Shown here piece by piece: positions 19,974 to 45,863 of a stretch of DNA of 64,000 nucleotides. The notes under the pieces were generated by a model. That model worked only from the letters and a program-made list of their open reading frames with translations, had not been told where the DNA came from and searched no databases. This stretch comes from an uncultured Candidatus Saccharibacteria bacterium (lineage in GTDB: Bacteria; Patescibacteriota; Minisyncoccia; Phycocordibacterales; JAACPR01), in NCBI GenBank assembly GCA_964618845.1, contig CAZUCU010000001.1:468-64467 (forward strand), read 5' to 3'. Position numbers and translations under genes: made by a program. Every line of letters starts with the position of its first letter. Within the stretch, counting starts at the first letter, position 1.

Positions 19974-20070
19974 CCGTCATTCCCAAAACTATATAGAGAA
20001 TCTACACTTAGTAAAATAATGCTTAAAAAGCACGGACCTCCGATATTGCTTCGGAGGTGACAACTCTTTT
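19974..20070 (+). repeat. Copy A of a roughly 100-bp hairpin-containing repeat element (the second copy is at 45774-45863)
   Basis: Shared blocks CGTCATTCCC, ATGCTTWWAAAG, AAGCRYGGACCYCCGATANNGCTTCGGRGGTGAC. The hairpin at 20036-20058 carries compensatory T-A to C-G changes relative to copy B. Confidence 0.55.
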
Positions 20071-20150
20071 ATATTTCTTTGTTTTAAAACTTCATAAATT
20101 CTTCAACATTTCTTTATCAGGATTTAACCTCTTTTTGATAGCATTGTTCT

Positions 20151-20537
20151 ATGCTAAAGGATTTTGATAGTTGGAATCTAATAAAGAAAAGAATAGACCT
20201 AGAAAATAGGGTACCTATTAGGGTTGGTGAGATATTTTGGTGTAAGCTTGGTCTAAATATTGGTGTTGAACAGAATGGAAACGAAAAAGAATTTACTAGA
20301 CCAGTTATAATTATAAAAAAATTCTCAAATCAAATTGTTTTAATTGCTCCATTAACAACCAAACCCCATAAAGGCAATTGGTATTTAGAAAAAGATATTC
20401 TTGGAATTAAACAACAAATAATCCTAAATCAAATCAAACCAGTTGATGTTAAAAGGTTAACAAAAAGTTTGGGAGAGATATCTGAAAAAGAAGTTCAACT
20501 AATATTATATGAGTATTTTAAATTGCTTATTCTTTAA
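20151..20537 (+). CDS. PemK/MazF-family toxin-like protein (putative endoribonuclease) with no recognisable antitoxin partner
   Basis: GEIFWCKLGLNIGVEQNGNEKEFTRPVIIIK ... IAPLTT resembles the MazF/PemK signature (GxIxxxDxxP...RPxxVxS...xxPxTS). 128 aa. Confidence 0.5.
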   Translation: MLKDFDSWNLIKKRIDLENRVPIRVGEIFWCKLGLNIGVEQNGNEKEFTRPVIIIKKFSNQIVLIAPLTTKPHKGNWYLEKDILGIKQQIILNQIKPVDVKRLTKSLGEISEKEVQLILYEYFKLLIL

Positions 20538-20693
20538 TGTATAAAGACCGCTTGTGGCGGTCTTCGGCTGGGTTACCCCAAACTGTATGTGTCACTATTA
20601 TAACAAAATTATTTTGTCAAAGTCAACAAATGCCCCACAATGGCGAAGCCATCGCGGGGCTATAAATCACAAAATTTTTTGGGCAAAACTTGG

Positions 20694-21659
20694 ATGGATT
20701 ATGTGGGGGAGAGAGAGTTGAAAATTGAAAAACAAGGATTTTTGTGGTATTTTATAGATATGAAAAAGTGGTTTGGCGGTATTATTTTGATAATTATTTG
20801 TATAGCTATTTGGGGTTATATTTTTTATTTACAAAAATCTAAATTTGATTTGGCTTACGTAGACACAAAAGGTCAGGTTTGGCTCAAAGATTTGAATGGT
20901 TTTAAAAAAGACTTGATGGTTGTTGATGAAGCTGATGAGCAAGACACAAAAATAGATACTCCTAGAACTATAAGTGTTTCACCTAATAATAAAATGATCG
21001 CAGTAGATTTATTTAGACAAAATAACTCCGAAAAAGGCGTTGCAATCTATGACATAAAATCAGCAAATATTAAATTTATAACTGAAGGTGAAATAGGTAA
21101 TTTTGCATGGTCCCCTGATTCTAAGTATCTTCTAATGAATTCATATACATATGCAGACAAAATCTACTCAATTGAGTTTGGCGAATTAATTGAATTTCAG
21201 GAAGCTCCAAGATATAGACAAGACGGTGATTACTCAGCAGAAAAGGCATTTTATCGTATGGTAAGTTGGGGAGAATCTGACCGAGCTTATTTTATGAAAA
21301 TAAATTTAAATGATAATAGCCAACAAACTGTCTTATTTAATTTGATTACAAAAGAAGAAAAAGTAGTAGAAGATCTAAAAGAAACATCTTTTGATAAATT
21401 AAAACTAGCTTTTGGTTCTTTCGAGCCAAAACTTCTTGACTCTATGGACAATACCAAAAGTCCAAATGAACCTTTTTATCGTCGTCAAGAAAGACCAGGA
21501 AATAAAACACTTTGTGGATTTGAAAATAAAATAATCTATCCAACAAAATCTTTGAAAGAAATTTTATACAGAGATTATTCTTTGGCTATTTTTGATACTA
21601 AGACACAGAAAACCAAAAGAATCGTTGAAAACATAATAGACTATTCTTGTTTTTGGTAG
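20694..21659 (+). CDS. Membrane-anchored protein with TolB/PD40-like beta-propeller repeats. Start uncertain (20640, 20694 or 20760).
   Basis: TM GIILIIICIAIWGYIFYL. Repeats such as SPNNKMIAVDL and WSPDSKYLLMNSY are typical of PD40 blades. Confidence 0.45.
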   Translation: MDYVGERELKIEKQGFLWYFIDMKKWFGGIILIIICIAIWGYIFYLQKSKFDLAYVDTKGQVWLKDLNGFKKDLMVVDEADEQDTKIDTPRTISVSPNNKMIAVDLFRQNNSEKGVAIYDIKSANIKFITEGEIGNFAWSPDSKYLLMNSYTYADKIYSIEFGELIEFQEAPRYRQDGDYSAEKAFYRMVSWGESDRAYFMKINLNDNSQQTVLFNLITKEEKVVEDLKETSFDKLKLAFGSFEPKLLDSMDNTKSPNEPFYRRQERPGNKTLCGFENKIIYPTKSLKEILYRDYSLAIFDTKTQKTKRIVENIIDYSCFW

Positions 21660-21869
21660 GAGTGGGAGCTGTGTCCCGCGTAACGAAGTGTAGTGGGATT
21701 GAAAATTAAAGAGAAAGAAAGTATAAATATAACTATGAAAAAAACCAAAAAAATGAATTTATAAGAGTTACCACAGAACTTAAAAACGGAGTTTTCGTAA
21801 CTTCAACTTCTACAATTGACCGTTAACGAACCCTTCCATTTGGGCTTATTCCTTCAAAATATAAATTTT

Positions 21870-22118
21870 TTATTTAGTCCATTTTCTAAAAGATTTAATC
21901 ACTGCACCCAAAAGACTTCCTAATATATAAACTACTATAAAACTTATTATGGCTGGAGGAAGAACGGTTGAAATAATAATCTTATAATAATTCCATAGAT
22001 TCTCAGCACAAGAAAATTCACAAATTATTGTGCTGTCATAAACAATATATTTTCTTCTTAATTCTAACTTTCTAAATGCCCAAATGTCTGTTAAAATAAG
22101 CCTATAAATATGACACAA
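21870..22118 (-). CDS. Possible small membrane protein
   Basis: 82-aa ORF with a hydrophobic segment. No homology recognised. Could be spurious. Confidence 0.2.
   Translation of the reverse strand: MCHIYRLILTDIWAFRKLELRRKYIVYDSTIICEFSCAENLWNYYKIIISTVLPPAIISFIVVYILGSLLGAVIKSFRKWTK
22087..22098 (+). promoter_or_regulatory. TCTGTTAAAATA extended -10-like motif upstream of scpA
   Basis: Member of the recurrent motif family. Confidence 0.4.
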
Positions 22119-22123
22119 GATTA

Positions 22124-22861
22124 ATGACAGAAAATTATAAAATCAAAACCGAAAAGTTTGAAGGACCCCTTGATATACTTTTGGATATGATTGAGAGGAG
22201 AAAACTTCTAATCAATGATTTTTCTCTTTCAAAAATTACAGATGATTTTATAGATTATATTTCTAATTTAGGAAAAATATCCGCTTCCAAGATTTCAGAT
22301 TTTTTGGTTGTTGCTTCAACTCTAATTTTAATTAAATCTCGGTCTCTTTTACCCACTTTAACATTAGGTGGAGATGAAGAAAAAGATATACAAGATTTAG
22401 GGATAAGATTAAATATTTTAAAAATTATAAAAGAAATTTCAATTTTTGTGGAATCGTCTTTTCAAAAGATAATCAGATTCCCCAAAAGACAAATCAAAAT
22501 CTTAAAACCAAAATTTTCACCCACAAAAGAATTAAACTCTCATAACATGAGAATTATAATGCTCAGTATCATAAATACATTTCCTTCCTTTGAGGAAAAA
22601 AAAGAAGCAAGAATCAAAAAAACTATATCTTTAGAAGATACAATGAATAAGTTGATAAACAGAATAAGAAGTCATACCTCGATGTCTTTTTTTGAATTTT
22701 CTGGAAAAAAGACCAGAACAGAAAAAATAAATATTTTGGTAAGTTTCTTGGCTGTGTTAGAGTTGGTAAAAAGAGGCCTATTAAAGGCTAATCAAAGTAA
22801 CAAATATCATGATATTAATCTTGAATCAAACGAAATTAACATACCAAAATTTGGAATATGA
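22124..22861 (+). CDS. scpA: Segregation and condensation protein A
   Basis: N-terminal FEGPLDILLDMIERRKLLINDFSL is the ScpA signature. Followed by scpB. Confidence 0.8.
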   Translation: MTENYKIKTEKFEGPLDILLDMIERRKLLINDFSLSKITDDFIDYISNLGKISASKISDFLVVASTLILIKSRSLLPTLTLGGDEEKDIQDLGIRLNILKIIKEISIFVESSFQKIIRFPKRQIKILKPKFSPTKELNSHNMRIIMLSIINTFPSFEEKKEARIKKTISLEDTMNKLINRIRSHTSMSFFEFSGKKTRTEKINILVSFLAVLELVKRGLLKANQSNKYHDINLESNEINIPKFGI

Positions 22862-23403
22862 GTGAATTAGATAAAAAAATAGAAGCATTAATTTTTTATA
22901 AAGGGGAAGAAATAACTTTCAAAGAGCTTTCAAATATTTTGGAAGTCAGCGAAGAAGAAATAAAAAATGGCGTTTTAAATATCAAAGAAAAAAATAAATA
23001 TTCAGGGATAAAAATTTTGACAACAGACAATTCGGTTATGTTTACAACAGGTGAGGAAATTGCTCCAATAATAGAAAAATTAGAAAAAGAAGAATATGAA
23101 AAAGAATTATCCAAAGCATCACTTGAAACTTTAACAATTATTCTTTATCGCGGACCAATAAAAAAAAGCATGGTTGATTATATAAGAGGAGCAAACTCTC
23201 AATTTACTCTTCGAAATTTATTAATCAAAGGTTTAATCGAAAAAGAAACGGATCCCAAAGACGAGAGGTCTTATCTTTATAAACCAACAATTGAACTTTT
23301 GCGATATATGAATATTTCTAATATCAAAGAATTACAAGAATATAAAGAAATAAATGAAAAAATTGATAGTTTTATTAAAAATTCAGAAAAAGAAAATGGA
23401 TGA
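22858..23403 (+). CDS. scpB: Segregation and condensation protein B
   Basis: IEALIFYKGEEITFKELSNIL ... LETLTIILYRGPIKKSMVDYIRG are the ScpB winged-helix blocks. Overlaps the scpA stop. Confidence 0.8.
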   Translation: MSELDKKIEALIFYKGEEITFKELSNILEVSEEEIKNGVLNIKEKNKYSGIKILTTDNSVMFTTGEEIAPIIEKLEKEEYEKELSKASLETLTIILYRGPIKKSMVDYIRGANSQFTLRNLLIKGLIEKETDPKDERSYLYKPTIELLRYMNISNIKELQEYKEINEKIDSFIKNSEKENG

Positions 23404-24328
23404 ACAAGAAAAAAAACAGAATAGAGATTTGTTTATACTTTTTTTATTTTTTTTGATTCCGCTTTTGATCCTTGCCTTCTCATTAATAATTAAGAATCCA
23501 AAAAATATAAATGAAGAAGCGACGAATAAAAATCAAAAAGAATATGTTTTTGATACAAAAAATATAAAAGCAGAATCAATATTGGTAACCGAACTTAATA
23601 CAGATAAAATTATTTTTAAAAAAAATGAGAAAGAAAAAAGGGCAATAGCTTCAATAACCAAATTGATGACAGTTTTAGTGGCAAGTGAAAAATTATCAAC
23701 CAAAAATATAAATAATATAAAAATAAATGAAAAACATTTAACGGCCTTTGGAGACTCAGGGTTATTGGTAGGACAAGTATGGAAGGTCAAAGATTTGATA
23801 GATTTTACTTTAATAACTTCATCAAATGACGGAGCAAAAGCCTTAGCATTATCTGCTTTTGAAAATGATGAAACATTATTTGTAAAAAATATGAATTTGT
23901 TTGCACAAAATTTGGGTTTACAAAATACTCATTTTGTCAATGAAACTGGATTAGATTTAATAGATAAAAATGAAGCAGGGGCCCTATCAACAGCAGAAGA
24001 TATTACTAAAATATTAAAATTTATTGTATTAAACGAAACAGATGTTTTTTCTGAATCAACAAAGGGAAATAAGAGGTTGACAGTCGGAGACAAAAATTAT
24101 GAAATATCAAATACTAGCTCTGCCGTTGATATGCTTCCAGGAGCTATTATATCCAAAACAGGGTATACAGACCTCGCAGGAGGAAATTTAGCAATAGTAA
24201 TTGATTTTGGGCTTAATAACCCTATATCCATAGTCATTTTAGGTTCTACAATGGAAGATAGAGATCAGGATATCATTAATTTATACAACCAAACAGCTAA
24301 TTATTATGCTAAAAATATCAGGAAATAA
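23354..24328 (+). CDS. dacA: D-alanyl-D-alanine carboxypeptidase (PBP5/6-like, S11 family). The true start is probably at 23398.
   Basis: SITK (SxxK), SSND (SxN) and KTGYT (KTG) motifs in the correct order. N-terminal TM. Confidence 0.8.
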   Translation: MKKLIVLLKIQKKKMDEQEKKQNRDLFILFLFFLIPLLILAFSLIIKNPKNINEEATNKNQKEYVFDTKNIKAESILVTELNTDKIIFKKNEKEKRAIASITKLMTVLVASEKLSTKNINNIKINEKHLTAFGDSGLLVGQVWKVKDLIDFTLITSSNDGAKALALSAFENDETLFVKNMNLFAQNLGLQNTHFVNETGLDLIDKNEAGALSTAEDITKILKFIVLNETDVFSESTKGNKRLTVGDKNYEISNTSSAVDMLPGAIISKTGYTDLAGGNLAIVIDFGLNNPISIVILGSTMEDRDQDIINLYNQTANYYAKNIRK

Positions 24329-24349
24329 TCTTTAGTTTTTTTTATTTTT

Positions 24350-24361
24350 TCTGTTAAAATA
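24350..24361 (+). promoter_or_regulatory. TCTGTTAAAATA extended -10-like motif, 6 nt upstream of the mraY ATG
   Basis: 19-nt near-identity with the motif at 5161-5179 (TTTTCTGTTAWAATARCCT). Confidence 0.45.
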
Positions 24362-24367
24362 ACCTCC

Positions 24368-25438
24368 ATGACAATAGATATAATAAAAATTTTAATACCA
24401 GCAATATTAGCATTTTTTGTTGGGATAGGAATTACTCCCACTATTACCAATTATCTTTATAAAAATAAGATGTGGAAAAAGAAGGCAAAGACAGTTACGA
24501 TTGATGGTAGGGAAGCAACAGTTTTTAATTCTTTACACAAAGAAAAAGAAGTTAATACACCAAGACTTGGTGGAACCGTAATTTGGATCTCTGCGTTGAT
24601 TGCTACTCTTATAATATGGTTAATAGCAAGAATAACTTCAATAGATGTTTTTGAGAAACTTGAATTTGTCTCCAGAAATCAAACATGGATTCCATTTTTT
24701 ACTTTACTTTTTGGAGCTGGCATTGGTGCAGTTGATGATATTTTGGAAATAAAAGGTATTGGCGGGCACATCGCTGGGGGTTTGTCTCTCAAAAAAAGAT
24801 TAGTTTTTGTTGGGATTGTAGGATTAATAATAAGTTTATGGTTTTTTATAAAATTAGAGGTCTCTTCTATATTTTTACCATTTTGGGGGTATAAAGAAAT
24901 TGGGTGGTTATTTGTTCCTTTTTTTATAATTGTTATGTTACTTATTTATTCAGGTGGTATTATAGATGGAATTGATGGATTATCTGGAGGAATTTTTGCA
25001 ATTGCTTTTGCTGCTTATGGTGTAATTGCATTATCAAATACTCAAATAGATTTAGCCACTTTTTGTGTATTGATAGTTGGGTCTATTCTTGCTTTTTTGT
25101 GGTTTAATATACCGCCCGCCCGTTTTTATATGTCAGAAACAGGATCAATGGCGCTCACTATGACATTGACGGTTGTTGCATTTATGACTGATTATTTAGG
25201 AAAGGGGAGGGGCCTTATTGTTCTTCCTCTTATTGCTCTTCCACTTATATTAACCACCCTGTCTGTTATTGTTCAATTATTATCCAAAAAATTTAGAGGA
25301 AAAAAAATATTTTTGTCTACTCCTATACATCATCACTTTGAAGCAATTGGTTGGCCTGCCTACAAAGTAACAATGCGATATTGGATTTTTTCTATAGTAT
25401 TTGCAACTATTGGTGTAATTTTTGCCATAATAAAATAA
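24368..25438 (+). CDS. mraY: Phospho-N-acetylmuramoyl-pentapeptide transferase
   Basis: GGIIDGIDGLSGG motif. Multi-TM. 356 aa. Confidence 0.9.
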   Translation: MTIDIIKILIPAILAFFVGIGITPTITNYLYKNKMWKKKAKTVTIDGREATVFNSLHKEKEVNTPRLGGTVIWISALIATLIIWLIARITSIDVFEKLEFVSRNQTWIPFFTLLFGAGIGAVDDILEIKGIGGHIAGGLSLKKRLVFVGIVGLIISLWFFIKLEVSSIFLPFWGYKEIGWLFVPFFIIVMLLIYSGGIIDGIDGLSGGIFAIAFAAYGVIALSNTQIDLATFCVLIVGSILAFLWFNIPPARFYMSETGSMALTMTLTVVAFMTDYLGKGRGLIVLPLIALPLILTTLSVIVQLLSKKFRGKKIFLSTPIHHHFEAIGWPAYKVTMRYWIFSIVFATIGVIFAIIK

Positions 25439-25464
25439 ATCAAAATTTTGTTATAATCTTATAA

Positions 25465-26565
25465 ATGTATAATAAAATTAAAGTTGAAAAATATTTTTTA
25501 TGGACTGTAATAATACTTACTCTTTTTGGTTTTTTAATTTTTTATTCAGCTTCAACAGGATTAGCCGCCAAAGAAAATTTAAATTTTTATTCTAGAATAA
25601 TAAATCAATTTACAATAGGTATACTGGGGGGGCTATTTTTGATGTTTATTTTTTATAAAATTATTAATAATGATTTTATAAAGAAACACGCTATTATCTT
25701 GTTTTTAATTTCTTTCACATTAAATCTTGTTGTTTTTATTCCTGGAGTTGGAATAGAACACGGTGGATCTATAAGATGGATTGATTTTAAATTTTTTACT
25801 CTTCAGCCTTCAGAATTATTAAAAATAACTTCCATAATTTTTTTTGCTTCATGGATTAATTATCATAAAGAAAAGATCAAAAAAAACTTTTTTTCTATAA
25901 TATCCTTATGTGTGCTAATTCTTTTAATTTCCATCCCATTGATATTTCAGAGAGATTTTGACACAATATTTTTAATCACGGTACCAATTTGTGCAATGTA
26001 TTTAGTAGCAAAGGCCCCGTTTAAACATTTTTTGTTATTTTTATCTTTACCAATAATTTTAGGGTTAATTTTATTTTTTACAGTACCCCATATAAATTCC
26101 AGAATAATGGGTTTCCTAAATCAAAGTGAAGATGGACAAACAATAAATTATCAAACTCAACAATCGCAAATCGCAATTGGTTCTGGTGGAATTTTTGGCA
26201 AAGGATTAGGAAAAAGTACTCAAAAATTTGGAGCGTTACCTGAACCCACAAGTGATTCTGTTTTTGCAGTTTTAGCAGAAGAGACTGGTCTGATTGGTGC
26301 GACTTTCATTTTAATTTTATATTTTTTACTTATTGTGTTTGGATATAAAATCGCCTTGAACTCTAAAAATATATATGGTTCTCTATTTACTTTTGGGGTT
26401 ATGACATTAATTGCTACACAATCTATTATGAATATTGCTTCGATGGTTGGTTTGTTTCCAATTACTGGACAACCTTTAGTTTTTGTTTCTCATGGAGGTA
26501 CCTCCCTTCTTGTGACACTTGCTTCAATGGGAATGATTTTAAATATATCCAAAAAAGAAAAATAA
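25465..26565 (+). CDS. ftsW: SEDS-family peptidoglycan polymerase (FtsW/RodA)
   Basis: 10-TM SEDS topology with conserved blocks. Sits between mraY and murG, as in division and cell-wall gene clusters. Confidence 0.8.
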   Translation: MYNKIKVEKYFLWTVIILTLFGFLIFYSASTGLAAKENLNFYSRIINQFTIGILGGLFLMFIFYKIINNDFIKKHAIILFLISFTLNLVVFIPGVGIEHGGSIRWIDFKFFTLQPSELLKITSIIFFASWINYHKEKIKKNFFSIISLCVLILLISIPLIFQRDFDTIFLITVPICAMYLVAKAPFKHFLLFLSLPIILGLILFFTVPHINSRIMGFLNQSEDGQTINYQTQQSQIAIGSGGIFGKGLGKSTQKFGALPEPTSDSVFAVLAEETGLIGATFILILYFLLIVFGYKIALNSKNIYGSLFTFGVMTLIATQSIMNIASMVGLFPITGQPLVFVSHGGTSLLVTLASMGMILNISKKEK

Positions 26566-26605
26566 TTTATTTTATAATAATCAATTTTTTTGGTAGAATA
26601 AAAGC

Positions 26606-27733
26606 ATGAAGATTATTTTTACGGGAGGCGGTTCTGGGGGTCATTTTTATCCAATAATAGCAATAGCCCAGGAACTTAGAAAATTAATAAAAGAAGAAAA
26701 ATTAGTTGACCCAATTTTGTATTTTCTGGCACCCGATCCTTATGATAAAGGAATATTATTTGACAATGGAATAATTTACAAAAAAATATTTTCTGGGAAA
26801 AAAAGATTGTATCCTTCATTCTTAAATTTTCTCGATAAAATTAAACTCGCAATTGGTGTGTTACAAGCAATGTGGATGGTTTTTTGGATTTATCCTGATA
26901 TTGTTTTTAGCAAAGGGGGTTTTGGTAGCATTCCCGTCGTCTTTGTAAGTAAATTACTTAAAATTCCAATTGTCATACATGAATCAGATAGTGCTCCAGG
27001 CAGAGCAAATCAGTGGGCCAGTAAATTTGCAGAAAAAATTGCAATTTCTTATCCAGAAGCAGCAAATTATTTTGATAAAGAAAAAGTTGCCTGGACGGGT
27101 CATCCTGTAAGAGATGAAATAAAAGTACCAACAAAAGAAGGCGGGCACGAATATTTGGGTTTTGATAAAAATATACCAACTCTCTTTATATTAGGTGGTT
27201 CCTCAGGGTCACAAACTATTAATGACAAAATTGTTGATGTCTTACCAGAGTTGGTAAAAAAATATCAAATTATTCACCAAGTCGGAAAGAAAAATTTAAA
27301 GGAAATGAGAGAAACAACAAATTTAGTGTTAAATGATTCTTTATTTGGTAATCGCTACAAAATTTTTGATTATTTAAGTAATTTAGGAATTAAAATGGCT
27401 TCTGGAGCTACAGATTTAATAATATCTCGAGCAGGTTCAACTATTTTTGAAATAGCATCGTGGGGAAAGCCAAGTATCATTATTCCAATAACAGAATCTA
27501 ATAATGATCACCAGAGAAAGAATGCTTATAACTATTTAAGAGCAGGAGCTTGTGTGGTAATTGAAGAAAATAATTTAACCTCAGAAATATTGCTCTCAGA
27601 AATAGAAAGATTATTAACAAATCAAGTTTTATTAAAAGAGATGTCAGAAAGGGCTCTATCTTTTGTAAAACCAAATGCAAGTTATTTGATAGCTAAAGAA
27701 ATTATTGATACATTAATAAGACATGAATCATAG
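26606..27733 (+). CDS. murG: Undecaprenyldiphospho-muramoylpentapeptide beta-N-acetylglucosaminyltransferase
   Basis: IIFTGGGSGGHFYPIIAIAQEL N-terminal G-loop of MurG. 375 aa. Confidence 0.85.
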   Translation: MKIIFTGGGSGGHFYPIIAIAQELRKLIKEEKLVDPILYFLAPDPYDKGILFDNGIIYKKIFSGKKRLYPSFLNFLDKIKLAIGVLQAMWMVFWIYPDIVFSKGGFGSIPVVFVSKLLKIPIVIHESDSAPGRANQWASKFAEKIAISYPEAANYFDKEKVAWTGHPVRDEIKVPTKEGGHEYLGFDKNIPTLFILGGSSGSQTINDKIVDVLPELVKKYQIIHQVGKKNLKEMRETTNLVLNDSLFGNRYKIFDYLSNLGIKMASGATDLIISRAGSTIFEIASWGKPSIIIPITESNNDHQRKNAYNYLRAGACVVIEENNLTSEILLSEIERLLTNQVLLKEMSERALSFVKPNASYLIAKEIIDTLIRHES

Positions 27734-30432: not shown

Positions 30433-30433
30433 A

Positions 30434-31635: not shown

Positions 31636-31710
31636 TCTTTTGTGTTTGTATTATTATTTTGTATTTTGTGCTTGGTACTTCGGATTTATTTTTTTACCTC
31701 TCCCCCAGAC

Positions 31711-37247: not shown

Positions 37248-37341
37248 AGACTATTTTTATCTTGAGATTTAATACATAAAATAACAAATAAAACAATGTG
37301 TTTTGATAAATTTGTCAAATTTGATTTTTCCCCAATTCATC

Positions 37342-37383: not shown

Positions 37384-37401
37384 TATGATAACATTACATT
37401 T

Positions 37402-38763
37402 ATGAATTCATTAAAAATCCCACCACAAAGTCAAGAAAGTGAGAAAGCTTTAATTGGAGCAATTTTGCTTCGACCAGAAGCAATTTATGAAATTATGGAT
37501 ATGATTTCTCCCGAAGCATTTTATGCCACCAAAAATAAACTAATTTTCCAAACAATGCTTGAACTGATCAGTAAAGGAATAGAGATAGATTCTGTTTCTG
37601 TCTCCGAAAAACTTCGAGAAAAAGGAAATTTTGATAAAACAGGAGGAAAATCATATATAGCAGAACTTTTGGACTCTGTTCCCTCTTCCTCTAATATTAA
37701 ACATTATGCAAATATAATTTTAAAGAAAAAATTAATGCGAGATCTTTTAGAAGTAGCTGATCATTTATCTTTTCTGGGTTATGAAGAATCAAAAGAAATT
37801 GAAGAAATATTAGATGAAGCCGAAAAAAAAGTTTTCTCTGTTACAAATTTAAAAACTACAAAAAATTATATTGAACTCAAAAAAGCTCTTGGTGAAGCAT
37901 TTGAAAGATTGGATAGACTACATAAATCAAAAGAAGATTTAAGAGGTATACCTACTGGTTTTGCTGGGCTTGATAATTTACTCTCTGGATTTCAAAAATC
38001 AGATTTAATAATTTTGGCAGCTCGTCCCTCTATGGGAAAAACCTCTCTGGCTTTAGATATTTCAAGAAAAGTTGCATTAAATTATAAAATTCCTGTAATA
38101 TTTTTTTCTCTTGAAATGAGTCACGACCAACTGGTAGATAGGGTTTTGGCAGCTGAATCTGGTGTTAATTCTTTTAATATTAGACGAGGGAAGGGACTTA
38201 AAGAACAGGATTTTGAAAATATTGGTAATGCGATATCACGACTTTCTGAAGCACCGTTTTTTATAGAAGATACCTCTGGATTAAATATTATTCAAATGAA
38301 ATCAATGATTCGAAGAATTATTTCTGAAAAATTTAAAGATGGGGATAGAGGTTTAGTAGTTGTGGATTATTTACAACTTATGACACCAACAAATTCTCGA
38401 ATTGATAATACCGTAGCTCAAATTACAGAAATTTCTAGATCACTAAAAGGTATGGCAAAAGAATTTAGAATTCCCGTTATTGCTCTTTCACAACTTTCAA
38501 GAGCAGTAGAGTCAAGAGGTGGAAAACCTCGATTATCAGATCTGAGAGATTCTGGCGCAATCGAACAAGATGCCGACGTTGTTATGTTTATTCATCGAGA
38601 AGATAAATATAACGAAGAATCTAATAAGCCAAATATTGCGCAGATTCTAATTGAAAAACACAGAAATGGACCAACGGGTCGAGTTGATCTCTATTTTGAC
38701 GAAAAGAAAACAACCTTTGTTGATATAGATAAAACTCACAGTAATCTTCTTGAAAATTTTTAA
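37402..38763 (+). CDS. dnaB: Replicative DNA helicase DnaB
   Basis: SQESEKALIGAILL N-terminal domain. Walker A (ARPSMGKTS). RecA-like C-terminal domain. 453 aa. Confidence 0.9.
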   Translation: MNSLKIPPQSQESEKALIGAILLRPEAIYEIMDMISPEAFYATKNKLIFQTMLELISKGIEIDSVSVSEKLREKGNFDKTGGKSYIAELLDSVPSSSNIKHYANIILKKKLMRDLLEVADHLSFLGYEESKEIEEILDEAEKKVFSVTNLKTTKNYIELKKALGEAFERLDRLHKSKEDLRGIPTGFAGLDNLLSGFQKSDLIILAARPSMGKTSLALDISRKVALNYKIPVIFFSLEMSHDQLVDRVLAAESGVNSFNIRRGKGLKEQDFENIGNAISRLSEAPFFIEDTSGLNIIQMKSMIRRIISEKFKDGDRGLVVVDYLQLMTPTNSRIDNTVAQITEISRSLKGMAKEFRIPVIALSQLSRAVESRGGKPRLSDLRDSGAIEQDADVVMFIHREDKYNEESNKPNIAQILIEKHRNGPTGRVDLYFDEKKTTFVDIDKTHSNLLENF

Positions 38764-38772
38764 ATTTAAAAT

Positions 38773-39381
38773 ATGAATATTATTGACGAACTAACAGAAT
38801 TATTTAAGGAATTTCCCGGGATTGGTCCGCGTCAGGCCCGAAGATTTGTTTACTATTTACTTAGAAAAAACGGGGATTACATAAACAAAATAGTCACCCT
38901 CATTCCAGAACTGCGAAAAAAAACTAAAACTTGTAATGAGTGTTTTCGATTTTTTTCTTCCCCGTCTTCTAAATGTAGTATTTGTGAAAATAAAAACCGC
39001 AATTCAAAAATTTTGATGGTTGTTGCTCGAGATTCTGATCTTGAAAATATAGAAAAAACAGATACTTTTAATGGGTATTATTTTGTACTTGGTGGACTTT
39101 TGCCAGTACTTGAGAAAGATAGCAAAAAGCATATTAGACTTAATGAACTTTTAAAACTAATTTCTCAAAAAAAAGATCTTGGGGAAATAATTCTGGCCTT
39201 TCCAGTAAATCCCGAAGGAGATAACACTGCTCAATTTCTTAAAAAAGAAATTGAACAACAAATTCGAAATTCGAAATCCGAAATCCGAATTTCTACATTG
39301 GGAAGAGGACTTTCTACAGGATTAGAACTTGAATATTCAGACAAAGAAACAATCAAAAATGCACTACAAAATAGAAACTAA
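38773..39381 (+). CDS. recR: Recombination protein RecR
   Basis: FPGIGPRQARRFVYYL helix-hairpin-helix. Cys4 zinc finger. Toprim domain. The C-terminus contains repeat-derived IRNSKSEIRIS. Confidence 0.85.
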   Translation: MNIIDELTELFKEFPGIGPRQARRFVYYLLRKNGDYINKIVTLIPELRKKTKTCNECFRFFSSPSSKCSICENKNRNSKILMVVARDSDLENIEKTDTFNGYYFVLGGLLPVLEKDSKKHIRLNELLKLISQKKDLGEIILAFPVNPEGDNTAQFLKKEIEQQIRNSKSEIRISTLGRGLSTGLELEYSDKETIKNALQNRN

Positions 39382-39466
39382 AGAACAAATATAAAATCCG
39401 AAATACGAAATCAGAAATTCAAAACAAATCCGAAATTAGAAATACGAAATTCCAAACACGAGTTTT
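39260..39466. repeat. Two arrays of GAAATYC / CGAAAT heptamer repeats, one inside the recR 3' coding region and one downstream
   Basis: AAATTCGAAATTCGAAATCCGAAATCCGAATTTC (39260-39294) and AAAATCCGAAATACGAAATCAGAAATTCAAAACAAATCCGAAATTAGAAATACGAAATTCC (39394-39466). Confidence 0.8.
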
Positions 39467-39506
39467 AAATTTCTAATTTTGTGCTTAGTGCTTCGAATTT
39501 AATTAT

Positions 39507-39896
39507 CTAGATCTTAACGATCTTAACTTTCATAAAATCTTGTCTGTGTCCCCTTTTTATAAAATATCGAGATTTTGCTTTGTATTTGATAACAACAATT
39601 TTTTTATCCTTTCCTTGTTCTACTAACTCCCCCTCTACAGATGCACCTTTAACATACGGGGTACCAATTTTGATTTCTTTTCCATCATCTATTAATAAAA
39701 CATTATCAAATTTTACTTTATTACCTCCCTTGATTTCACCACCTAATTTTGCAATTTTAATAATTTGACCGACAAAAACAACCATTTGTTTGCCTCCCGT
39801 CTCCACAACCGCATACTCCTTTGCCAAGTTCGTGCTCTTGGCGACAGCGGATTTGTCTTTTATTTTCACTTTCTCTGTTTTAGTTTCTTTTTTCAT
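39507..39896 (-). CDS. rplU: 50S ribosomal protein L21 (with a Lys-rich N-terminal extension)
   Basis: YAVVETGGKQ ... KIVVIKYKAKSRYFIKRGHRQ signature. Confidence 0.85.
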   Translation of the reverse strand: MKKETKTEKVKIKDKSAVAKSTNLAKEYAVVETGGKQMVVFVGQIIKIAKLGGEIKGGNKVKFDNVLLIDDGKEIKIGTPYVKGASVEGELVEQGKDKKIVVIKYKAKSRYFIKRGHRQDFMKVKIVKI

Positions 39897-39940
39897 AAGT
39901 CCTACGATTTTACACTATTTTTAATGTTTTGCAAGAATTT

Positions 39941-41014
39941 TTACCCCTCTACTTTTACACTTTCTTCAATTTGAAGTGGGTCTAATTTTACTTCTCCGTC
40001 TGTAATTCGCACGATATCTTTATCGATTTTTTTAAATTCTTTAGCTGACAAATTATATTGATTTACAACTGTCCCCAAATTTTTTCCAAGCTTATCATGA
40101 TAATCTTCATAGGACTTTAAATGTCTTTGAAGCTCTCCTACATATTTTCTAATCTTTTGAGCTGATTCCTCGATCTTGTAGGCCTTAAAACCAAAAAGAA
40201 CTGATTGTAAATATGCCAAAAAAGTTGTCGGCGAAACTATAAAAACTTTTTTTTCATTGTAAGAATAATCGATTAGACTTCGCGAATTTATAGTTGTTGC
40301 ACCAACTGCTCCTGTAAGCAATTCATAATAAATTCCCTCAGCTGGAATAAACATAAAAGCAAAAGAAAGAGTTCCCTCATTCGGTCTAATATATTTGGCA
40401 GTTTCATCAATTCTTCTTTTTAAATCATTTTTGAAATCTCTTTCAAGTTCTGCTCTTCTAACTTCATCACTTTCATTTACTAAACGAGAATAATTATCCA
40501 GAGAAAATTTAGCATCAATTGGGATAATTCCCTCTTTGGTTTTAATTATTGCATCAACCACATCACCATTTTTGAACATATATTGAAGATCATAAGTAGT
40601 TGGATCCAAGGCGTTTTGTAAAACAAGCTCCAAAGCTGCTTCTCCCCAATTCCCTCTTTGTTTTTGATGTTTCAAAACTTTTTCTAAATTGGAAAGTTGC
40701 TCAGCAATTGTAAACACTTGTTTAGTTGATTGGGAGACTTCTGTTACCCCTTTTGTAACATTTAAAAGTTGCTCAGTCATTTGTTTGTTTATGTCTTGTA
40801 TAAGTTGCTGAGATCTTGCAAATTGTTCAGAAGAAACCTGAGCTACATTTTTTTGAGAATCTTGAATAGACCTATTTACTTCATTCATCTGAGTAAGTAA
40901 CATATTTAAACTCTTTTCATCTTGAGAATCCTTTTTCTTGGTAATCAAAAAAACAACCGCTATAACATTTATAACAAGTAAAATAAGCACGATAACAAGT
41001 AATGTTTCTACCAT
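39941..41014 (-). CDS. rmuC: DNA recombination protein RmuC
   Basis: N-terminal TM, a long coiled coil, and the conserved C-terminal RmuC block (GNWGEAALELVL ... PIDAKFSLD ... FMFIPAEGIYYE). Confidence 0.8.
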   Translation of the reverse strand: MVETLLVIVLILLVINVIAVVFLITKKKDSQDEKSLNMLLTQMNEVNRSIQDSQKNVAQVSSEQFARSQQLIQDINKQMTEQLLNVTKGVTEVSQSTKQVFTIAEQLSNLEKVLKHQKQRGNWGEAALELVLQNALDPTTYDLQYMFKNGDVVDAIIKTKEGIIPIDAKFSLDNYSRLVNESDEVRRAELERDFKNDLKRRIDETAKYIRPNEGTLSFAFMFIPAEGIYYELLTGAVGATTINSRSLIDYSYNEKKVFIVSPTTFLAYLQSVLFGFKAYKIEESAQKIRKYVGELQRHLKSYEDYHDKLGKNLGTVVNQYNLSAKEFKKIDKDIVRITDGEVKLDPLQIEESVKVEG

Positions 41015-41099
41015 TGAGAATGATTATAACATATTACAAACATCGGATGTTTGTAATATATGATAAAATTGTTTATATATTAAAATTAATAAAAACAAT

Positions 41100-41552
41100 A
41101 TGAGTTTAATAGAAAAAATTAAGGGAGAAATGAAAGAAGCAATGAAATCTAAAGATACTGTAAAATTAACAGTTCTACGGGGTCTTATTTCTGGTTTTAC
41201 AAACGAATTGGTTGCAACTGATAAAACTCCCCAAGATGAAGTTACTGATGATTTAGCCCTTACTGTAATCAAAAGAGCTTCCAAACAAAGAAAAGACGCA
41301 ATAGAACAATTTGAAAAAGGGGGACGATCTGATCTTGTTGATAATGAAAAAGCAGAATTAAAAATTATTGAAACTTACATGCCCCAAATGATGAGCGAAG
41401 AACAAATAAAAGAAATTGTTCTTAGAAAAAAATTAGAACTTAAAATTTCTGATACTTCTCAAGCGGGACAATTAATAGGAGCTGTTATGAAAGAAATAAA
41501 CGGAAAAGCTGATGGGAGTTTGGTCAAAAAAATTATAACCGAAAATTTATAA
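41100..41552 (+). CDS. GatB/YqeY-domain protein
   Basis: 150 aa with YqeY-type helices (ETYMPQMMSEEQIKEIV). Confidence 0.75.
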   Translation: MSLIEKIKGEMKEAMKSKDTVKLTVLRGLISGFTNELVATDKTPQDEVTDDLALTVIKRASKQRKDAIEQFEKGGRSDLVDNEKAELKIIETYMPQMMSEEQIKEIVLRKKLELKISDTSQAGQLIGAVMKEINGKADGSLVKKIITENL

Positions 41553-41570
41553 GAATTTAAAAAAAGATTA

Positions 41571-41593
41571 GGCGTCGCGCTTCGCGCGACGCC
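41571..41593 (-). terminator. Intrinsic terminator: 10-bp GC-only stem GGCGTCGCGC / GCGCGACGCC followed by a T-run on the - strand
   Basis: Seen directly. Lies immediately downstream of the - strand ORF 41599-41880. Confidence 0.6.
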
Positions 41594-41598
41594 CCCTA

Positions 41599-41880
41599 TC
41601 AAATTCCTCCCCACTTGAAGAGCGAGTCTTTTTCTTCAAGTTTAGCCCTTCGTTTTGCTTCCCTCCTCCTTCTTACAAATTCAGAAATTGGTTTTTGGTT
41701 CCATTTTCCAAATTTTTTGAGATCGTTCTCTATTTTTTCCGCTCTCAAAAACCTGCCAGAAGGATTAGACTGAAGAGTACAATCTACAAAAATATCATCA
41801 GTCAACTCTTCGGGGACAGAACTTCCCCTTTTTGGTTTTTTCATTTTTTTGTTTTTGTGCTCTTTATTTAGAGAATACAA
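41599..41880 (-). CDS. Hypothetical small basic protein
   Basis: 93 aa. Locally elevated GC. A terminator lies downstream. Confidence 0.35.
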   Translation of the reverse strand: MYSLNKEHKNKKMKKPKRGSSVPEELTDDIFVDCTLQSNPSGRFLRAEKIENDLKKFGKWNQKPISEFVRRRREAKRRAKLEEKDSLFKWGGI

Positions 41881-41929
41881 TAAATACCCCTATTGTCAAT
41901 TTTTTCAAAATGTTTATAATTAAGGAGGT

Positions 41930-42241
41930 ATGAACCTTAAGGAAATAAACCCGAGTCGCCTTTCGAACATCGAATTGGCGAAAGTTATCGTTGCGGAAAC
42001 ATTTAAAATCACCGAGACAAGAGGCGAGAAAAAAATCGCCCAAATCGTTGACTTGGTGATGGGTCTCTTCATGTTTCAGGTCACTTCTTTTGAAGTACTC
42101 TTGGAGCGTTTTAGAAAGTACGGACCCGACCCTGATGCTCTCGAGATCATTAGGAAAAAGTTTCCACAAAAAGCGGAATACCTGTGCCAAGAAGCGGGTG
42201 TTCCATTTGAAAGTCAATCTCAATTTGACTTTCAAGATTAG
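41930..42241 (+). CDS. Hypothetical protein
   Basis: 103 aa. Followed directly by an intrinsic terminator at 42249-42287, which favours this frame over the overlapping - strand ORF. Confidence 0.4.
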   Translation: MNLKEINPSRLSNIELAKVIVAETFKITETRGEKKIAQIVDLVMGLFMFQVTSFEVLLERFRKYGPDPDALEIIRKKFPQKAEYLCQEAGVPFESQSQFDFQD

Positions 42242-42248
42242 CTCTTAC

Positions 42249-42287
42249 ACCTCGCTTGTCCCACAAGACAAGCGAGGTATTTTTATT
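42249..42287 (+). terminator. Intrinsic terminator: stem ACCTCGCTTGTC / GACAAGCGAGGT, then ATTTTTATTT
   Basis: Seen directly. Confidence 0.7.
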
Positions 42288-42314
42288 TATCAGAATCAGA
42301 CTCCATATCTTTAT

Positions 42315-43013
42315 TTAAAACTCAATTTTCCCTTTTGGAGAATAAATTTCAACTGTTTCTATTTTTTGGTAATAAGAAATAGTATCTTTTAAAATAGAAA
42401 ATAAGTGCTGATTTTCACAACTACTAAGTCCAGTAATGAGTCTGCCGGATGGCATATTTTCACTTTTCAAAAAAACTTTAGCAACCTTATTTGAAATTTC
42501 TACTTTTTCATACACTCCGTAATTTGATAGTTCATCTTCAAACAAAACTTTTACAGCTGAATCAATTAAGTTATTTGTTTTGGGAATTATTTTTGAAATT
42601 TGTTGGGTTACACCACAATCACTTGTTCTTGCAATTTCTTTGTTTTGAATAAAAAGAGTTATCGTCTCGGTTGTATTTGGACAAACAAACTGACAATCAG
42701 GTCCAGTACGCCCAACATAAGATCCGTCAGGACATTGCATCGCATCCATTGTGCAAGCGACAGAAGTAGAACTCACTTCACACTTCTCTTCCCAAACTCT
42801 CAAACATTTATTTTTTGCTTCACACCAAGAATATCCTGCAGATCCAATACATCCATGTGCATCTTTGTCTCCCCCAACAACAGGTGGATTGACATCAGGA
42901 AGAGATATTTCTTTAGAAGTTTTTTCTATATACAAATAAAGCCCAGCTCCTACCAGAACCATAAAGAACAACAAACCTAATAAGGTCGAAAATCCTTTCT
43001 GTTTATTTTTCAT
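42315..43013 (-). CDS. Secreted / membrane-anchored cysteine-rich protein (10 Cys in the N-terminal half) with a GerMN-like C-terminal region
   Basis: Signal/TM LLGLLFFMVLVGAGLYLYI. Cys-rich segment. 232 aa. Confidence 0.45.
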   Translation of the reverse strand: MKNKQKGFSTLLGLLFFMVLVGAGLYLYIEKTSKEISLPDVNPPVVGGDKDAHGCIGSAGYSWCEAKNKCLRVWEEKCEVSSTSVACTMDAMQCPDGSYVGRTGPDCQFVCPNTTETITLFIQNKEIARTSDCGVTQQISKIIPKTNNLIDSAVKVLFEDELSNYGVYEKVEISNKVAKVFLKSENMPSGRLITGLSSCENQHLFSILKDTISYYQKIETVEIYSPKGKIEF

Positions 43014-43211
43014 ATAGATATTATATCAAATTTCAAAATTGAAATATGTAGAATTTTTCCCAAAATCTGTTATTATTCTTTTCACAAACAACGGAGGAAA
43101 ACTTGAAGAATAAATGTTGTCCGAGAGTGTTCGAGTTAGATTTTTGGCGAAGTCATATCGCCAAAAAGCAACGAGTTTCGAGGAAACATTTATTATTTAA
43201 GTTTTCCGTAG

Positions 43212-43283
43212 GGCCCTATCGTCTAACGGTTAGGACAGCGCCTTCTCAAGGCGTAAATCCGGGTTCGATTCCCGGTAGGGTCA
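43212..43283 (+). tRNA. tRNA-Glu (anticodon CUC)
   Basis: Manual cloverleaf: acceptor GGCCCTA / TAGGGTC (one G-U pair), D-arm GTCT-AACGGTTA-GGAC, anticodon stem GCGCC / GGCGT with loop TTCTCAA (anticodon CTC), T-arm CCGGG-TTCGATT-CCCGG, discriminator A. Resembles canonical tRNA-Glu blocks (TCGTCTA..GG..AGGAC, GGTTCGAWTCC). Confidence 0.8.
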
Positions 43284-43364
43284 CATCATATTTTAGCTTT
43301 ATTTTAAGCCATTTTATTTTTGAAAAAGTTTTGTTTTCCGAATTTTTTGATATGATTATTTCAT

Positions 43365-43949
43365 ATGGAAAAACAACCAAGCGAAGTATATAAAGATGAA
43401 GCAGAAGAAACAAAAAAAGCTTTAGAGAACTTTTTTGATGATAATAGCGATTTCCCAACTGATGTTTCCTCTCTTTTGTACTCTCATGATGAACCTATCA
43501 TTAAAGATAATACAGAAGACCTGTTAATTTATGGAATAGATAAAATATTAAGAGAGTTAGTTATAATAGACGTTAATGAAGAAGATAACCAAGAAGTAAT
43601 TAAAAAATTACGAAATATTTTTCTTCACCAAGTTTCACATACACTCCTTTCATTATCATTTTTTGATGATAAATTAATTAAATCTAAACAATATATAGAC
43701 ATACTTAACAAAATATCTTACCTCGCTCTTTTATTTTGGGTTGATTTAAAAAGTACTGGAAAAGAAGATGTATTTATGAATTACAAAGATTTTTGTAAAA
43801 AATATGAAATAAAAGAATATGATTATTCAAAAGAATTTAATTTTGTTGAAGAATACACAAAAATTATTACTGAATTAAAAAAGTTTCTATTATCTAATGG
43901 AAAGAGGGAAGAAATAAAAAACAAAATTTTAAAAAATATAAACTTATGA
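43365..43949 (+). CDS. Hypothetical protein (first gene after the tRNA; island cargo)
   Basis: 194-aa ORF. Acidic N-terminus. No recognised motif. Confidence 0.45.
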   Translation: MEKQPSEVYKDEAEETKKALENFFDDNSDFPTDVSSLLYSHDEPIIKDNTEDLLIYGIDKILRELVIIDVNEEDNQEVIKKLRNIFLHQVSHTLLSLSFFDDKLIKSKQYIDILNKISYLALLFWVDLKSTGKEDVFMNYKDFCKKYEIKEYDYSKEFNFVEEYTKIITELKKFLLSNGKREEIKNKILKNINL

Positions 43950-44049
43950 ACATCGTAGATATTATATGATTGATAAATTCAATTCTTCTAAACTTTCTTT
44001 AATACAATCTCTATATCCCAAAAGTTCGGAAAGCCACACTTTGGGGTCA

Positions 44050-44151
44050 CCGCGTCAAACGCGGTTTCAGAACCGTATCAAACGGTATGGAACCACCAAA
44101 TTAACAAACCCCGTTTGACGGGGTCGCAGTGAAGGAGCCCGTCAGACGGGC
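44050..44151. repeat. Cluster of four small GC-stem hairpins (CCGCG-TCAAA-CGCGG, ACCGT-ATCAA-ACGGT, CCCCG-TTTGA-CGGGG, GCCCG-TCAGA-CGGGC) abutting the IS element
   Basis: Seen directly. A near-identical copy of the last hairpin occurs at 53239-53253 in the opposite orientation. Confidence 0.6.
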
Positions 44152-44196
44152 ACGTTCTCATCGCGTCAAAAATTCTCTAAAAAAGTTGATCGTTTT

Positions 44197-45078
44197 CTAA
44201 TCAATAGCTTGGAAACACCCAGACAATAATTGCATCGGAGTTTTGAGCTCAATTCCCATGTGCAATCTTTGCTCGTTATAGTATTTCAAATATTTCTCTA
44301 AAGCACAATTAATAACAGAAACGTTTCTTGGAAGAGTGTCTAAACACTCTTCTTGAAGTGTTCTGTTAAATCTTTCAATGTGTGCATTGTCATTAGGTTT
44401 TCCAATTCTAGTGTATCTATGGTTTCTCTTCACTCTGTCATAAAACCATTTTCCAAATTCACTTCCATGATCTGTTTGTATCATTTCAAAATTAAAAACT
44501 GATTGTCTCTCTGCTTCATTCAAAAACTCAACACTTATTGAAGAGTTTAATCTTTCATACGCTTTCGCAAAAGTGTTTCTAGAATAAACATCAATTAAGG
44601 TGAGAACATATATCCTAGTCTTCGGTCCTGTCATAAGGTGTATAGTGTCAATTTGAACCAAAGAACCTGGCTTTATTGGATATGGTCTATCAACAGGAGG
44701 ATGATATCTCTTCCAAGGAGATCTCTTTTTCATAAGTCCATGTCTATCAATTGTTCTTCTAACAGAGTTCAAAGAAACTTGGATATTTTCATTTAAAAGA
44801 TGTTGATGAACAACTTCACTTGTTCTCTTTGTGTCTAATCTGATTTTAATAATTCTTTTAACTACATTTTCTTCTAATTCCTTAGGATGATGATGTGGTC
44901 GTGAAGATTTGGTTGGTATTGGGTGAATACCGAGTTTTTCAGCTTTCTTTACCCATTTACTAATTGTTCCTGGACTTACGCCATATCTTCTAGCAACCGT
45001 TCTAACACCATATCCAATTCGAACCATAGTCGCAGCATCTCTACGAACTTTTGGCATGTTTGGATTATTTGTATACAT
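44197..45078 (-). CDS. IS481-type DDE transposase (rve integrase core)
   Basis: HTH (RYGVSPGTISKWVKK). The rve core spans LVQIDTIHL ... LIDVYSR ... IQTDHGSEF ... HIERFNRTLQEE. Confidence 0.85.
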   Translation of the reverse strand: MYTNNPNMPKVRRDAATMVRIGYGVRTVARRYGVSPGTISKWVKKAEKLGIHPIPTKSSRPHHHPKELEENVVKRIIKIRLDTKRTSEVVHQHLLNENIQVSLNSVRRTIDRHGLMKKRSPWKRYHPPVDRPYPIKPGSLVQIDTIHLMTGPKTRIYVLTLIDVYSRNTFAKAYERLNSSISVEFLNEAERQSVFNFEMIQTDHGSEFGKWFYDRVKRNHRYTRIGKPNDNAHIERFNRTLQEECLDTLPRNVSVINCALEKYLKYYNEQRLHMGIELKTPMQLLSGCFQAID

Positions 45079-45123
45079 AATGCTTGGATATTACTTTTTA
45101 ATGGAAGTGTTTCCAAGCTATTG
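44202..45123 (-). mobile_element. IS481-family insertion sequence (single-ORF DDE transposase with an N-terminal HTH) bounded by 17-bp terminal inverted repeats CAATAGCTTGGAAACAC
   Basis: Inverted repeats at 44202-44218 and 45107-45123 are exact reverse complements. The transposase ORF sits between them. Confidence 0.75.
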
Positions 45124-45147
45124 GGATATTACGGTTGATTTGACAAA

Positions 45148-45654
45148 ATGTTACGTCATGGTAATTTTACCTTAGACTTTAGCACAACACACACCATGAA
45201 AACATACGTACTGAATCGCTCGATATGTTCTCTTCTTGCATTAATCCCACTTTTGGGTTTTACGTATCTTGAGACCGTATATCATCTAATTCCCAGATTT
45301 AATGAAATATTTTCTCTAACACCAAAATCAACGAATTTGAATCACCTTGAACTAGTTTGGGTCCCGATCATCGCTTATATTTTGATTGCAACTATTGTTT
45401 ACCTCTTGTTAAAGATTTTCAAGAAACTGGAAGGTTTTAATAGAGAATGTGTCATTTGGGGTCTTACATGGGGTCTTATTATAGGCATCATCGCTGGTCT
45501 AATCTGGGGTCTGACGTCGGGTCTAATCGGTAGTGTCAATGGTGATCTCATTGGGAACATCATCTTGAATATCATTCTTGATCTCATCGTAGGCCTTATC
45601 TTGAGCCTCATCATAGGTCTAATTATAGGTCTCAAGCATGAATTCGAGTTATAA
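45148..45654 (+). CDS. Hypothetical membrane protein with degenerate GLI(x) glycine-zipper-like repeats
   Basis: GLIIGIIAGLIWGLTSGLIGSVNGDLIGNIILNIILDLIVGLILSLIIGLIIGL. The underlying DNA shows GGTCT(A/T)AT(C/T) periodicity. Confidence 0.45.
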   Translation: MLRHGNFTLDFSTTHTMKTYVLNRSICSLLALIPLLGFTYLETVYHLIPRFNEIFSLTPKSTNLNHLELVWVPIIAYILIATIVYLLLKIFKKLEGFNRECVIWGLTWGLIIGIIAGLIWGLTSGLIGSVNGDLIGNIILNIILDLIVGLILSLIIGLIIGLKHEFEL

Positions 45655-45773
45655 GCGTCAAGCTTAAATTCGAAAACAGTTTACACACAAAACGCACGAC
45701 CTTCGGGTACGGCGTTTTCTTTTTACATAACCACTGCAAATGTCCGACATTTGCAGTAAATGTACTTCATTTT

Positions 45774-45863
45774 CGTCATTCCCGTGAAGACGGGAATTCA
45801 TGCTTTTAAAGATATTAATAAAGCGTGGACCCCCGATACGGCTTCGGGGGTGACGATTATTTT
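45774..45863 (+). repeat. Copy B of the roughly 100-bp hairpin-containing repeat element (copy A at 19974-20070). Contains hairpins ATTCCCGT-GAAG-ACGGGAAT and CCCCCGA-loop-TCGGGGG.
   Basis: Direct alignment by eye with copy A. See findings. Confidence 0.55.

Follow-up and report, generated by a model that had tools for sequence, protein, structure and literature searches.

Two repeat copies in a candidate-phyla bacterium as probable gene-less inverted pairs of NTS/SRM-type DNA hairpins

The window analyzed here, 64,000 nucleotides of contig CAZUCU010000001.1 (assembly GCA_964618845.1, forward strand, positions 468 to 64,467), carries a short repeat element twice on its plus strand, as copy A at 19974-20063 and copy B at 45773-45857. 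The assignment of both copies to the NTS/SRM class of hairpins is well supported, and each copy most likely consists of two hairpin modules in inverted arrangement, without a gene, whose GTCA ends point outward. The Neisseria Transformation Sequence (NTS), CGTCATTCCCGCGMAVGCGGGAATCYRG, was defined by Chenal et al. (Nat Commun 2025; PMC11893778) as an extension of the dRS3 repeat ATTCCC-N8-GGGAAT; the Ssn-related motif (SRM) of the same work is degenerate. On balance we lean toward a reading in which these inverted NTS/SRM pairs would act as DNA, through an Ssn-type nuclease working on single-stranded DNA. What looked like a new structured RNA is in this way reassigned to a class of DNA hairpin repeats described only in 2025, and the class is extended to an AT-rich, reduced-genome candidate-phyla bacterium.

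A sequence-only reading of this stretch had proposed two plus-strand copies and, within their shared hairpin, the replacement of a T-A by a C-G pair. Both copies lie where it put them, the block they share occurs only there, and the change is real, with the stem reading CCTCCGA/TCGGAGG in copy A and CCCCCGA/TCGGGGG in copy B. Common to the copies are CGTCATTCCC (19975-19984 in A, 45774-45783 in B), ATGCTT..AAAGC and a 28-nt hairpin block, GGACCYCCGATANNGCTTCGGRGGTGAC, at 20034-20061 and 45827-45854; ATGCTTAAAAAG occupies 20019-20030 of copy A and ATGCTTTTAAAG 45800-45811 of copy B. With up to three mismatches allowed, the block has just these two matches in 64 kb, and none in 100 dinucleotide-preserving shuffles. 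The CGTCATTCCC 10-mer is not significant on its own (1.44 matches expected with one mismatch), and the middle parts of the two copies show no in-register alignment. The same sequence of copy A was found in seven Logan samples and that of copy B in L016 and L017. When three composites (A, B and a third from a relative, L033, described below) were used as blastn-short queries against the window and the relatives, no additional copies appeared.

The module runs in the order YGTCA, a G+C-rich stem of 7-8 bp, a loop of 4-7 nt, the stem complement and TCCRYGC, and two such modules stand head to head, GTCA ends outward, across a gap of 20-25 nt. By its folding, copy B (45773-45857) is an intact composite, with a closing stem (TCGTC/GACGA) and hairpins at 45778-45797, 45798-45828 and 45829-45851. 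Its left arm (45773-45803, plus strand) is the NTS/dRS3-like hairpin CGTCATTCCCGTGAAGACGGGAATTCATGC, which divides as TCGTCA-TTCCCGT-GAAG-ACGGGAA-TTCATGCTTT; its right arm (45823-45856) is an SRM-type hairpin that reads TCGTCA-CCCCCGA-AGCCGTA-TCGGGGG-TCCACGC on the minus strand, with a single-stranded DNA (ssDNA) fold of -10.4 kcal/mol (z = -3.6). With the right arm written as its reverse complement, TCGTCA-CCCCCGA-AGCCGTA-TCGGGGG-TCCACGCTTT, the two arms, judged by sequence, are variants of a single module set head to head. Copy A (19974-20063), by sequence and folding, is a composite in which the left module has decayed, the right module is intact and a short stem lies at the center. The left arm (19974-20008, plus strand) has kept CGTCATTCCC, its hairpin has decayed (ATTCCC..GAGAAT; ssDNA fold -0.4 kcal/mol, z = -0.03), and it matches neither SRM nor NTS; the right arm (20030-20063, minus strand) is again of the SRM type, TTGTCA-CCTCCGA-AGCAATA-TCGGAGG-TCCGTGC (-7.8 kcal/mol, z = -3.4). 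Thus the 5′ hairpin, ATTCCCGT-GAAG-ACGGGAAT, is intact in B and gone in A (ssDNA fold z of about 0), and three of the four arms fold as ssDNA with z near -3.5.

Copy B as a whole folds strongly, with RNA folds of -41.3 kcal/mol (z = -6.7) on the plus strand and -33.9 kcal/mol (z = -5.5) on the minus strand, and DNA folds of -23.4 and -21.5 kcal/mol for its two strands. The closing stem (GTCA/TGAC) and the middle stem (CATGCTT/AAGCRTG) arise because the conserved module flanks, YGTCA ... TCCRYGC, are placed head to head, and the cloverleaf fold forms on both strands because the modules are inverted.

Several observations place the arms in the published class. The SRM in the form HGTCWYN(0-2)YYVSBRHN(0-5)WNVSBRGN(0-2)RNCYNB (PMC11893778) has exactly two matches in the window, both on the minus strand, at 20032-20062 (the right arm of A) and 45825-45855 (the right arm of B), where chance would supply about 0.02 per simulated window. 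The left arm of B is an exact dRS3, ATTCCC-N8-GGGAAT (ATTCCCGTGAAGACGGGAAT), and shares 24 of 28 positions with the NTS consensus; when three mismatches over 27 nt of that consensus are tolerated, it is the sole match in the window, with 0 expected. Of its four mismatches, two together turn a C-G pair into T-A and so compensate each other, and another puts a T for the C that follows the palindrome. All told, the 64 kb hold three intact hairpins of the class and one decayed, against an expectation of about zero. In an unbiased blastn search of copy B against a plasmid collection, only the left arm matched, and its best matches were in two Neisseria gonorrhoeae records, with six places in each; Photobacterium, Azospirillum and Sphingomonas came next. 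What the window elements share with SRM and NTS is an oriented hairpin, the conserved 5′ GTCA flank, the C after the palindrome, and an intergenic location near variable genes. Unlike in the published cases, the elements are carried by a Parcubacteria-like, AT-rich (30% G+C) member of the candidate phyla radiation (CPR), a group not mentioned in PMC11893778. The right-arm stem, ACCYCCGA with a 7-nt loop, is a new stem variant of the class, and if the link with variable-gene hot spots holds genome-wide it would make a new hairpin specificity available for pairing with a nuclease.

A single double change between two sequences constitutes no statistical test. Among 16 hairpins of the class, several of them chosen by criteria that favor complementarity, the 7-bp stem is 99.1% paired, four of its seven pairs have changed on both sides, and the GTCA flank is invariant. 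Not one of 500 shuffles attained the covariation score of this set, and slid registers likewise came nowhere near it. A strain variant of copy A, L015, differs by four substitutions, two of which restore base pairs and two of which lie in the loop. The compensatory change between A and B shows conservation of the hairpin, not that the hairpin acts as RNA.

Further members of the class were found in contigs of relatives, reached by way of homologues of the tryptophanyl-tRNA synthetase TrpS, which place the window among Parcubacteria/Paceibacteria-like CPR bacteria. A third composite of the same design, CGTCA-TCCCGGA-[35 nt]-TCCGGGA-TCCATGCTT ... AAGCATGGA-TTCCGGC-CTTC-GCCAGAA-TGACA, occupies positions 9803-9927 of L033, with a histidine-kinase gene on one side and trpS on the other; in L034 and L035 these two genes overlap. 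Directly after trpS in L036 (2646-2835), GTCA-hairpin units form a direct array, three of them full and three half, and L031 carries such units between dnaJ and a pilin-like gene that is missing from L029; the units of L036 and L031 are located where gene order breaks. Beyond these relatives, gene-less inverted pairs of canonical NTS with GTCA ends outward are present in six unrelated IMG/VR contigs. Two lesser candidates within the window were set aside, a possible decayed hairpin at 21660-21705, which folds with z = -1.0, and a 12-nt match between 45634-45645 and 45794-45805, which is compatible with chance.

Arrays such as that of L036 recall NIMEs (neisserial intergenic mosaic elements), dRS3-RS-dRS3 units that in the description of Bentley et al. 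(2007; PMC1797815) are confined to Neisseria and comprise more than 100 families of the RS element (50-150 bp) and hundreds of copies. The window elements resemble NIMEs in the short A+T-rich spacer between G+C-rich hairpin repeats and in their association with variable genes. They differ in that each unit stands alone and a literal dRS3 is found only in the left arm of B: the partner of that arm is not one, the spacer is only about 20-25 nt, and an array occurs only in the relative L036.

The sequence-only reading had also spoken of a MITE-like family (miniature inverted-repeat transposable elements), and part of that description stands: the element is a gene-less inverted pair, L033 holds a third member at another locus, and similar pairs occur in unrelated contigs. 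A MITE would also have a target-site duplication and a cognate transposase; no duplication flanks A or B, and no matching transposase was found. In the wider comparison with MITEs, repetitive extragenic palindromes (REPs) and bacterial interspersed mosaic elements (BIMEs), the likeness lies in small, gene-less units bounded by inverted repeats, present in some relatives and absent from others (L033 as against L034 and L035), with the polarity of the hairpins that flank a GIY-YIG gene at the one locus examined. The inverted repeats of A and B, in contrast to those of such elements, are themselves hairpins that have diverged from one another, and they lack the GTAG head.

How might such a pair work? 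The enzyme that partners the published hairpins, Ssn, is a single-domain GIY-YIG nuclease of about 94 amino acids, and at least one SRM lies near 71% of ssn homologues (PMC11893778). SsnA binds and cuts near the NTS only when the NTS is single-stranded DNA, not when it is double-stranded DNA or RNA; this restriction has been shown for the Neisseria and Wolbachia enzymes only (PMC11893778). By analogy with these enzymes, we infer that the window hairpins would be recognized in the same single-stranded form. We suggest that the unit would work as DNA, not RNA, and that either strand may become transiently single-stranded during DNA uptake, replication or repair; a correctly oriented hairpin could then be recognized and bound by a small Ssn-family nuclease with a single GIY-YIG domain, which would nick just 5′ of it, and the nick might alter recombination of the surrounding DNA. 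The pair itself could be a gene-less, MITE-like derivative of a hairpin-GIY-YIG-hairpin unit. Such a mechanism is consistent with the presence of the elements at the edges of strain-variable DNA.

One locus illustrates what the parent unit may look like. An approximate Ssn-like protein probe, composed from conserved motifs of the family, retrieved a very large family of proteins of about 93 amino acids with PF01541 (candidates for membership of cd10448), none of them tied to this lineage. The 94-aa PF01541 GIY-YIG gene P0200, on contig L037, has GTCA hairpins on the plus strand upstream (1196 and 1344) and one on the minus strand that overlaps its stop codon (1778-1811). At this locus, the one examined, the flanking hairpins have their GTCA ends outward, as in the window composites, and because the polarity is the same the composites look like a hairpin-gene-hairpin unit without its gene. 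Half-hairpin units (GTGTCATCCTGAGCCCCTTAATAG) also stand beside the GIY-YIG gene, two of them in L037 (1069-1124) and about five to six in L038 (966-1124) and L039 (418-599); apart from this the contigs are 97-99% identical. Upstream of the hairpin array in L037 there is an IS110-family transposase.

A number of points weigh against the reading of the pairs as targets of an Ssn-type nuclease, and against so close an assignment of every arm. A search by motif and Pfam found no GIY-YIG gene in the 64-kb window or in about 140 kb from relatives, and the window holds only two composites, whereas published cases have hundreds of hairpin copies per genome. The left arms lie outside the formal motif; that of B fails the SRM, having a T directly after the palindrome where C is reported to be the most critical base for SsnA binding (PMC11893778), and with four mismatches to CGTCATTCCCGCGMAVGCGGGAATCYRG it also falls short of the strict NTS criterion, which allows at most one (PMC11893778). 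No target-site duplication is visible at either copy. The link with variable loci is confounded, because a compact genome has room for intergenic repeats only there. Finally, searches of GTDB species genomes, JGI metagenomes and IMG/VR did not turn up the exact right-arm variant, the matches there being chance ones. The GTDB scan with CCGATANNGCTTCGGNGGTGAC, a pattern that L015 shows to be too strict in the loop, gave 13 matches, all in coding DNA of G+C-rich genomes; the five JGI matches to GTCACNNNCGAAGNNNTATCGNNNGTCC were G+C-rich throughout and lacked complementary stems; the viral scans of IMG/VR, made with three right-arm versions, yielded no true match; and a phage collection gave no match.

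Each of the rival explanations, for its part, lacks a defining feature. The copies could be fossils, that is, the same hairpin pairs acquired horizontally, with no cognate nuclease, and now functionless and decaying. We consider this unlikely: the left hairpin of copy A has indeed been lost, the window has few copies, each of them within or next to acquired-looking DNA, and no GIY-YIG gene was found in the window or the fetched relatives, yet between A and B, at otherwise unrelated loci, the right arms show good conservation and differ by a compensating double change, half of the substitutions in L015 restore pairing, and element A is unchanged across the seven samples. We give still less credence to a bidirectional terminator or insulator, in which the inward-read hairpins, each followed by CAYGCTTT, would stop transcription from either side. 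The T run is short and lies 4-6 nt from the stem (about 8 nt in the outward reading), the conserved nonpalindromic GTCA flank has no role in termination, and the copy in L033 stands between co-directional genes that overlap in relatives. Moreover, copy B is preceded by a separate, G+C-rich, terminator-like hairpin with a T run (about 45682-45720) that would serve the upstream ORF, recognized by eye and left unflagged by a simple terminator scan. Three points speak for termination: A and B are intergenic and downstream of genes, one Sphingomonas NTS lies between convergent genes, and a simple scan under a permissive rule weakly picks out two of the arms, the right one of A (minus strand) and the left one of B (plus strand).

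A small structured RNA was one of the interpretations that the sequence-only reading had proposed, holding the RNA structure to be under selection; as a cloverleaf-like four-way junction transcribed from the plus strand we regard it as highly improbable, and the claim goes unsupported. The RNA fold of copy B (z = -6.7) is better on the plus strand by 7 kcal/mol, compensating changes are present, and the L033 element takes the same folded shape. The minus strand, however, also folds (z = -5.5), copy A lacks hairpin 1, neither A nor B has a promoter-like site upstream on the plus strand, and elsewhere the modules are met with as single units, as direct arrays and in either orientation. No Rfam family accounts for the element: of the Rfam 15 covariance models, only tRNA exceeded its gathering score in the window, and permissive scans of both loci gave matches at chance level. 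The stems and the overall shape are explained by the module flanks and their inverted arrangement, and the modules themselves match a published class of DNA hairpin. For annotation the case carries a warning, in that hairpin pairs may fold convincingly and covary without being RNA genes. Nor do we expect, except as an outside chance, that a different class of enzyme is involved, whether as REP/BIME-like elements with a REP-associated tyrosine transposase (RAYT, IS200/IS605-type) or as targets of an IS110-family/Piv-type recombinase. Paired inverted hairpins do resemble BIMEs, dRS3 is a documented integration target of Neisseria filamentous phage (PMC1797815), and the L037 hairpin array has an IS110-family transposase beside it; on the other hand, the GTAG head typical of REPs is missing, and the window encodes no Y1 or IS110-family protein, its only transposase being of the rve type with 17-bp inverted repeats of its own.

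Copy A begins 2 nt past the stop codon of the class-I tryptophanyl-tRNA synthetase gene (trpS, PF00579). Comparison with related genomes shows that it forms the trpS edge of an insertion between trpS and scpA (19973-22123, plus strand) in which Pfam and the comparison place, besides the element, a PemK/MazF-like toxin gene (20151-20537) and open reading frames (ORFs) of 42, 339 and, on the minus strand, 82 amino acids. The gap between trpS and scpA is 5 nt in L029, L031 and L032, and in the window 2.15 kb have been inserted there; L033, L034, L035, L036 and L063 each have different cargo at the same junction, which is a hot spot for cargo insertion. The cargo of L036 comprises a methylase and an Eco47II-like restriction enzyme. 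Upstream of the toxin gene (20151-20665 region) there is no antitoxin ORF, and the 42-aa ORF overlaps the toxin stop. A 61%-identical PemK homologue occurs beside pheS in the same samples (L045-L047), and since it has no such element, a link between the element and the toxin was rejected.

Copy B lies 119 nt past the stop of a 168-aa ORF that has no Pfam match. The stretch around it, from 44 to 48 kb, has a G+C content of 0.37-0.39, compared with about 0.30 elsewhere in the window, which suggests acquired DNA. An insertion sequence at 44197-45123 encodes an rve-type transposase with helix-turn-helix domains on the minus strand and is bounded by perfect 17-bp inverted repeats (44202-44218 and 45107-45123); its end is 650 nt from copy B, and its ends are unrelated to the hairpin elements. 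The 25.7 kb between copies A and B contain core genes, among them those for ScpAB, MraY, FtsW, MurG, GltX and the ribosomal proteins L9 and L21, in the order kept by the relatives. Because core genes in conserved order lie between them, A and B are not the ends of an island, and their interpretation as attL and attR of an integrated element was rejected. Taken with the relatives, hairpins of the class are located where genes turn over, which is also true of NIME/NTS repeats in Neisseria (PMC1797815); the observation is anecdotal and comes from a small sample.

We speculate, with little confidence, that inverted SRM pairs in CPR bacteria could be non-autonomous derivatives of hairpin-ssn-hairpin units that mark, and perhaps help to create, hot spots for cassette exchange among core genes, such as trpS|scpA, where the nuclease would act on DNA imported by competence. 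CPR organisms depend on competence machinery for DNA uptake. If the pairs are such derivatives, they would represent a NIME-like system of gene flux outside Neisseria and a first sign of mobile Ssn units. Should the link with hot spots prove to be genome-wide, it would suggest that the influence of Ssn-type hairpin systems on gene flux reaches far past Neisseria and the alphaproteobacterial symbionts studied.

Several other features of the window were recorded in passing. Sixteen nucleotides upstream of copy B, positions 45733-45757 form a perfect 12-bp palindrome, ACTGCAAATGTC-C-GACATTTGCAGT, with an ssDNA fold at z = -6.6. Nine tandem 21-nt repeats (46082-46333) fall within a minus-strand ORF (45910-46401) and give its product a heptad-repeat, coiled-coil-like character. 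Short direct repeats are found in intergenic DNA near the L21 gene, at 39274-39465 and, as a pair, at 31656-31701 and 39469-39514 (AAATCCGAAATCCGAA...; ATTTTGTGCTTGGTACTTCGGATTT). At 4746-5144 the window encodes a 132-aa SET-domain protein (PF00856, E = 1e-25).

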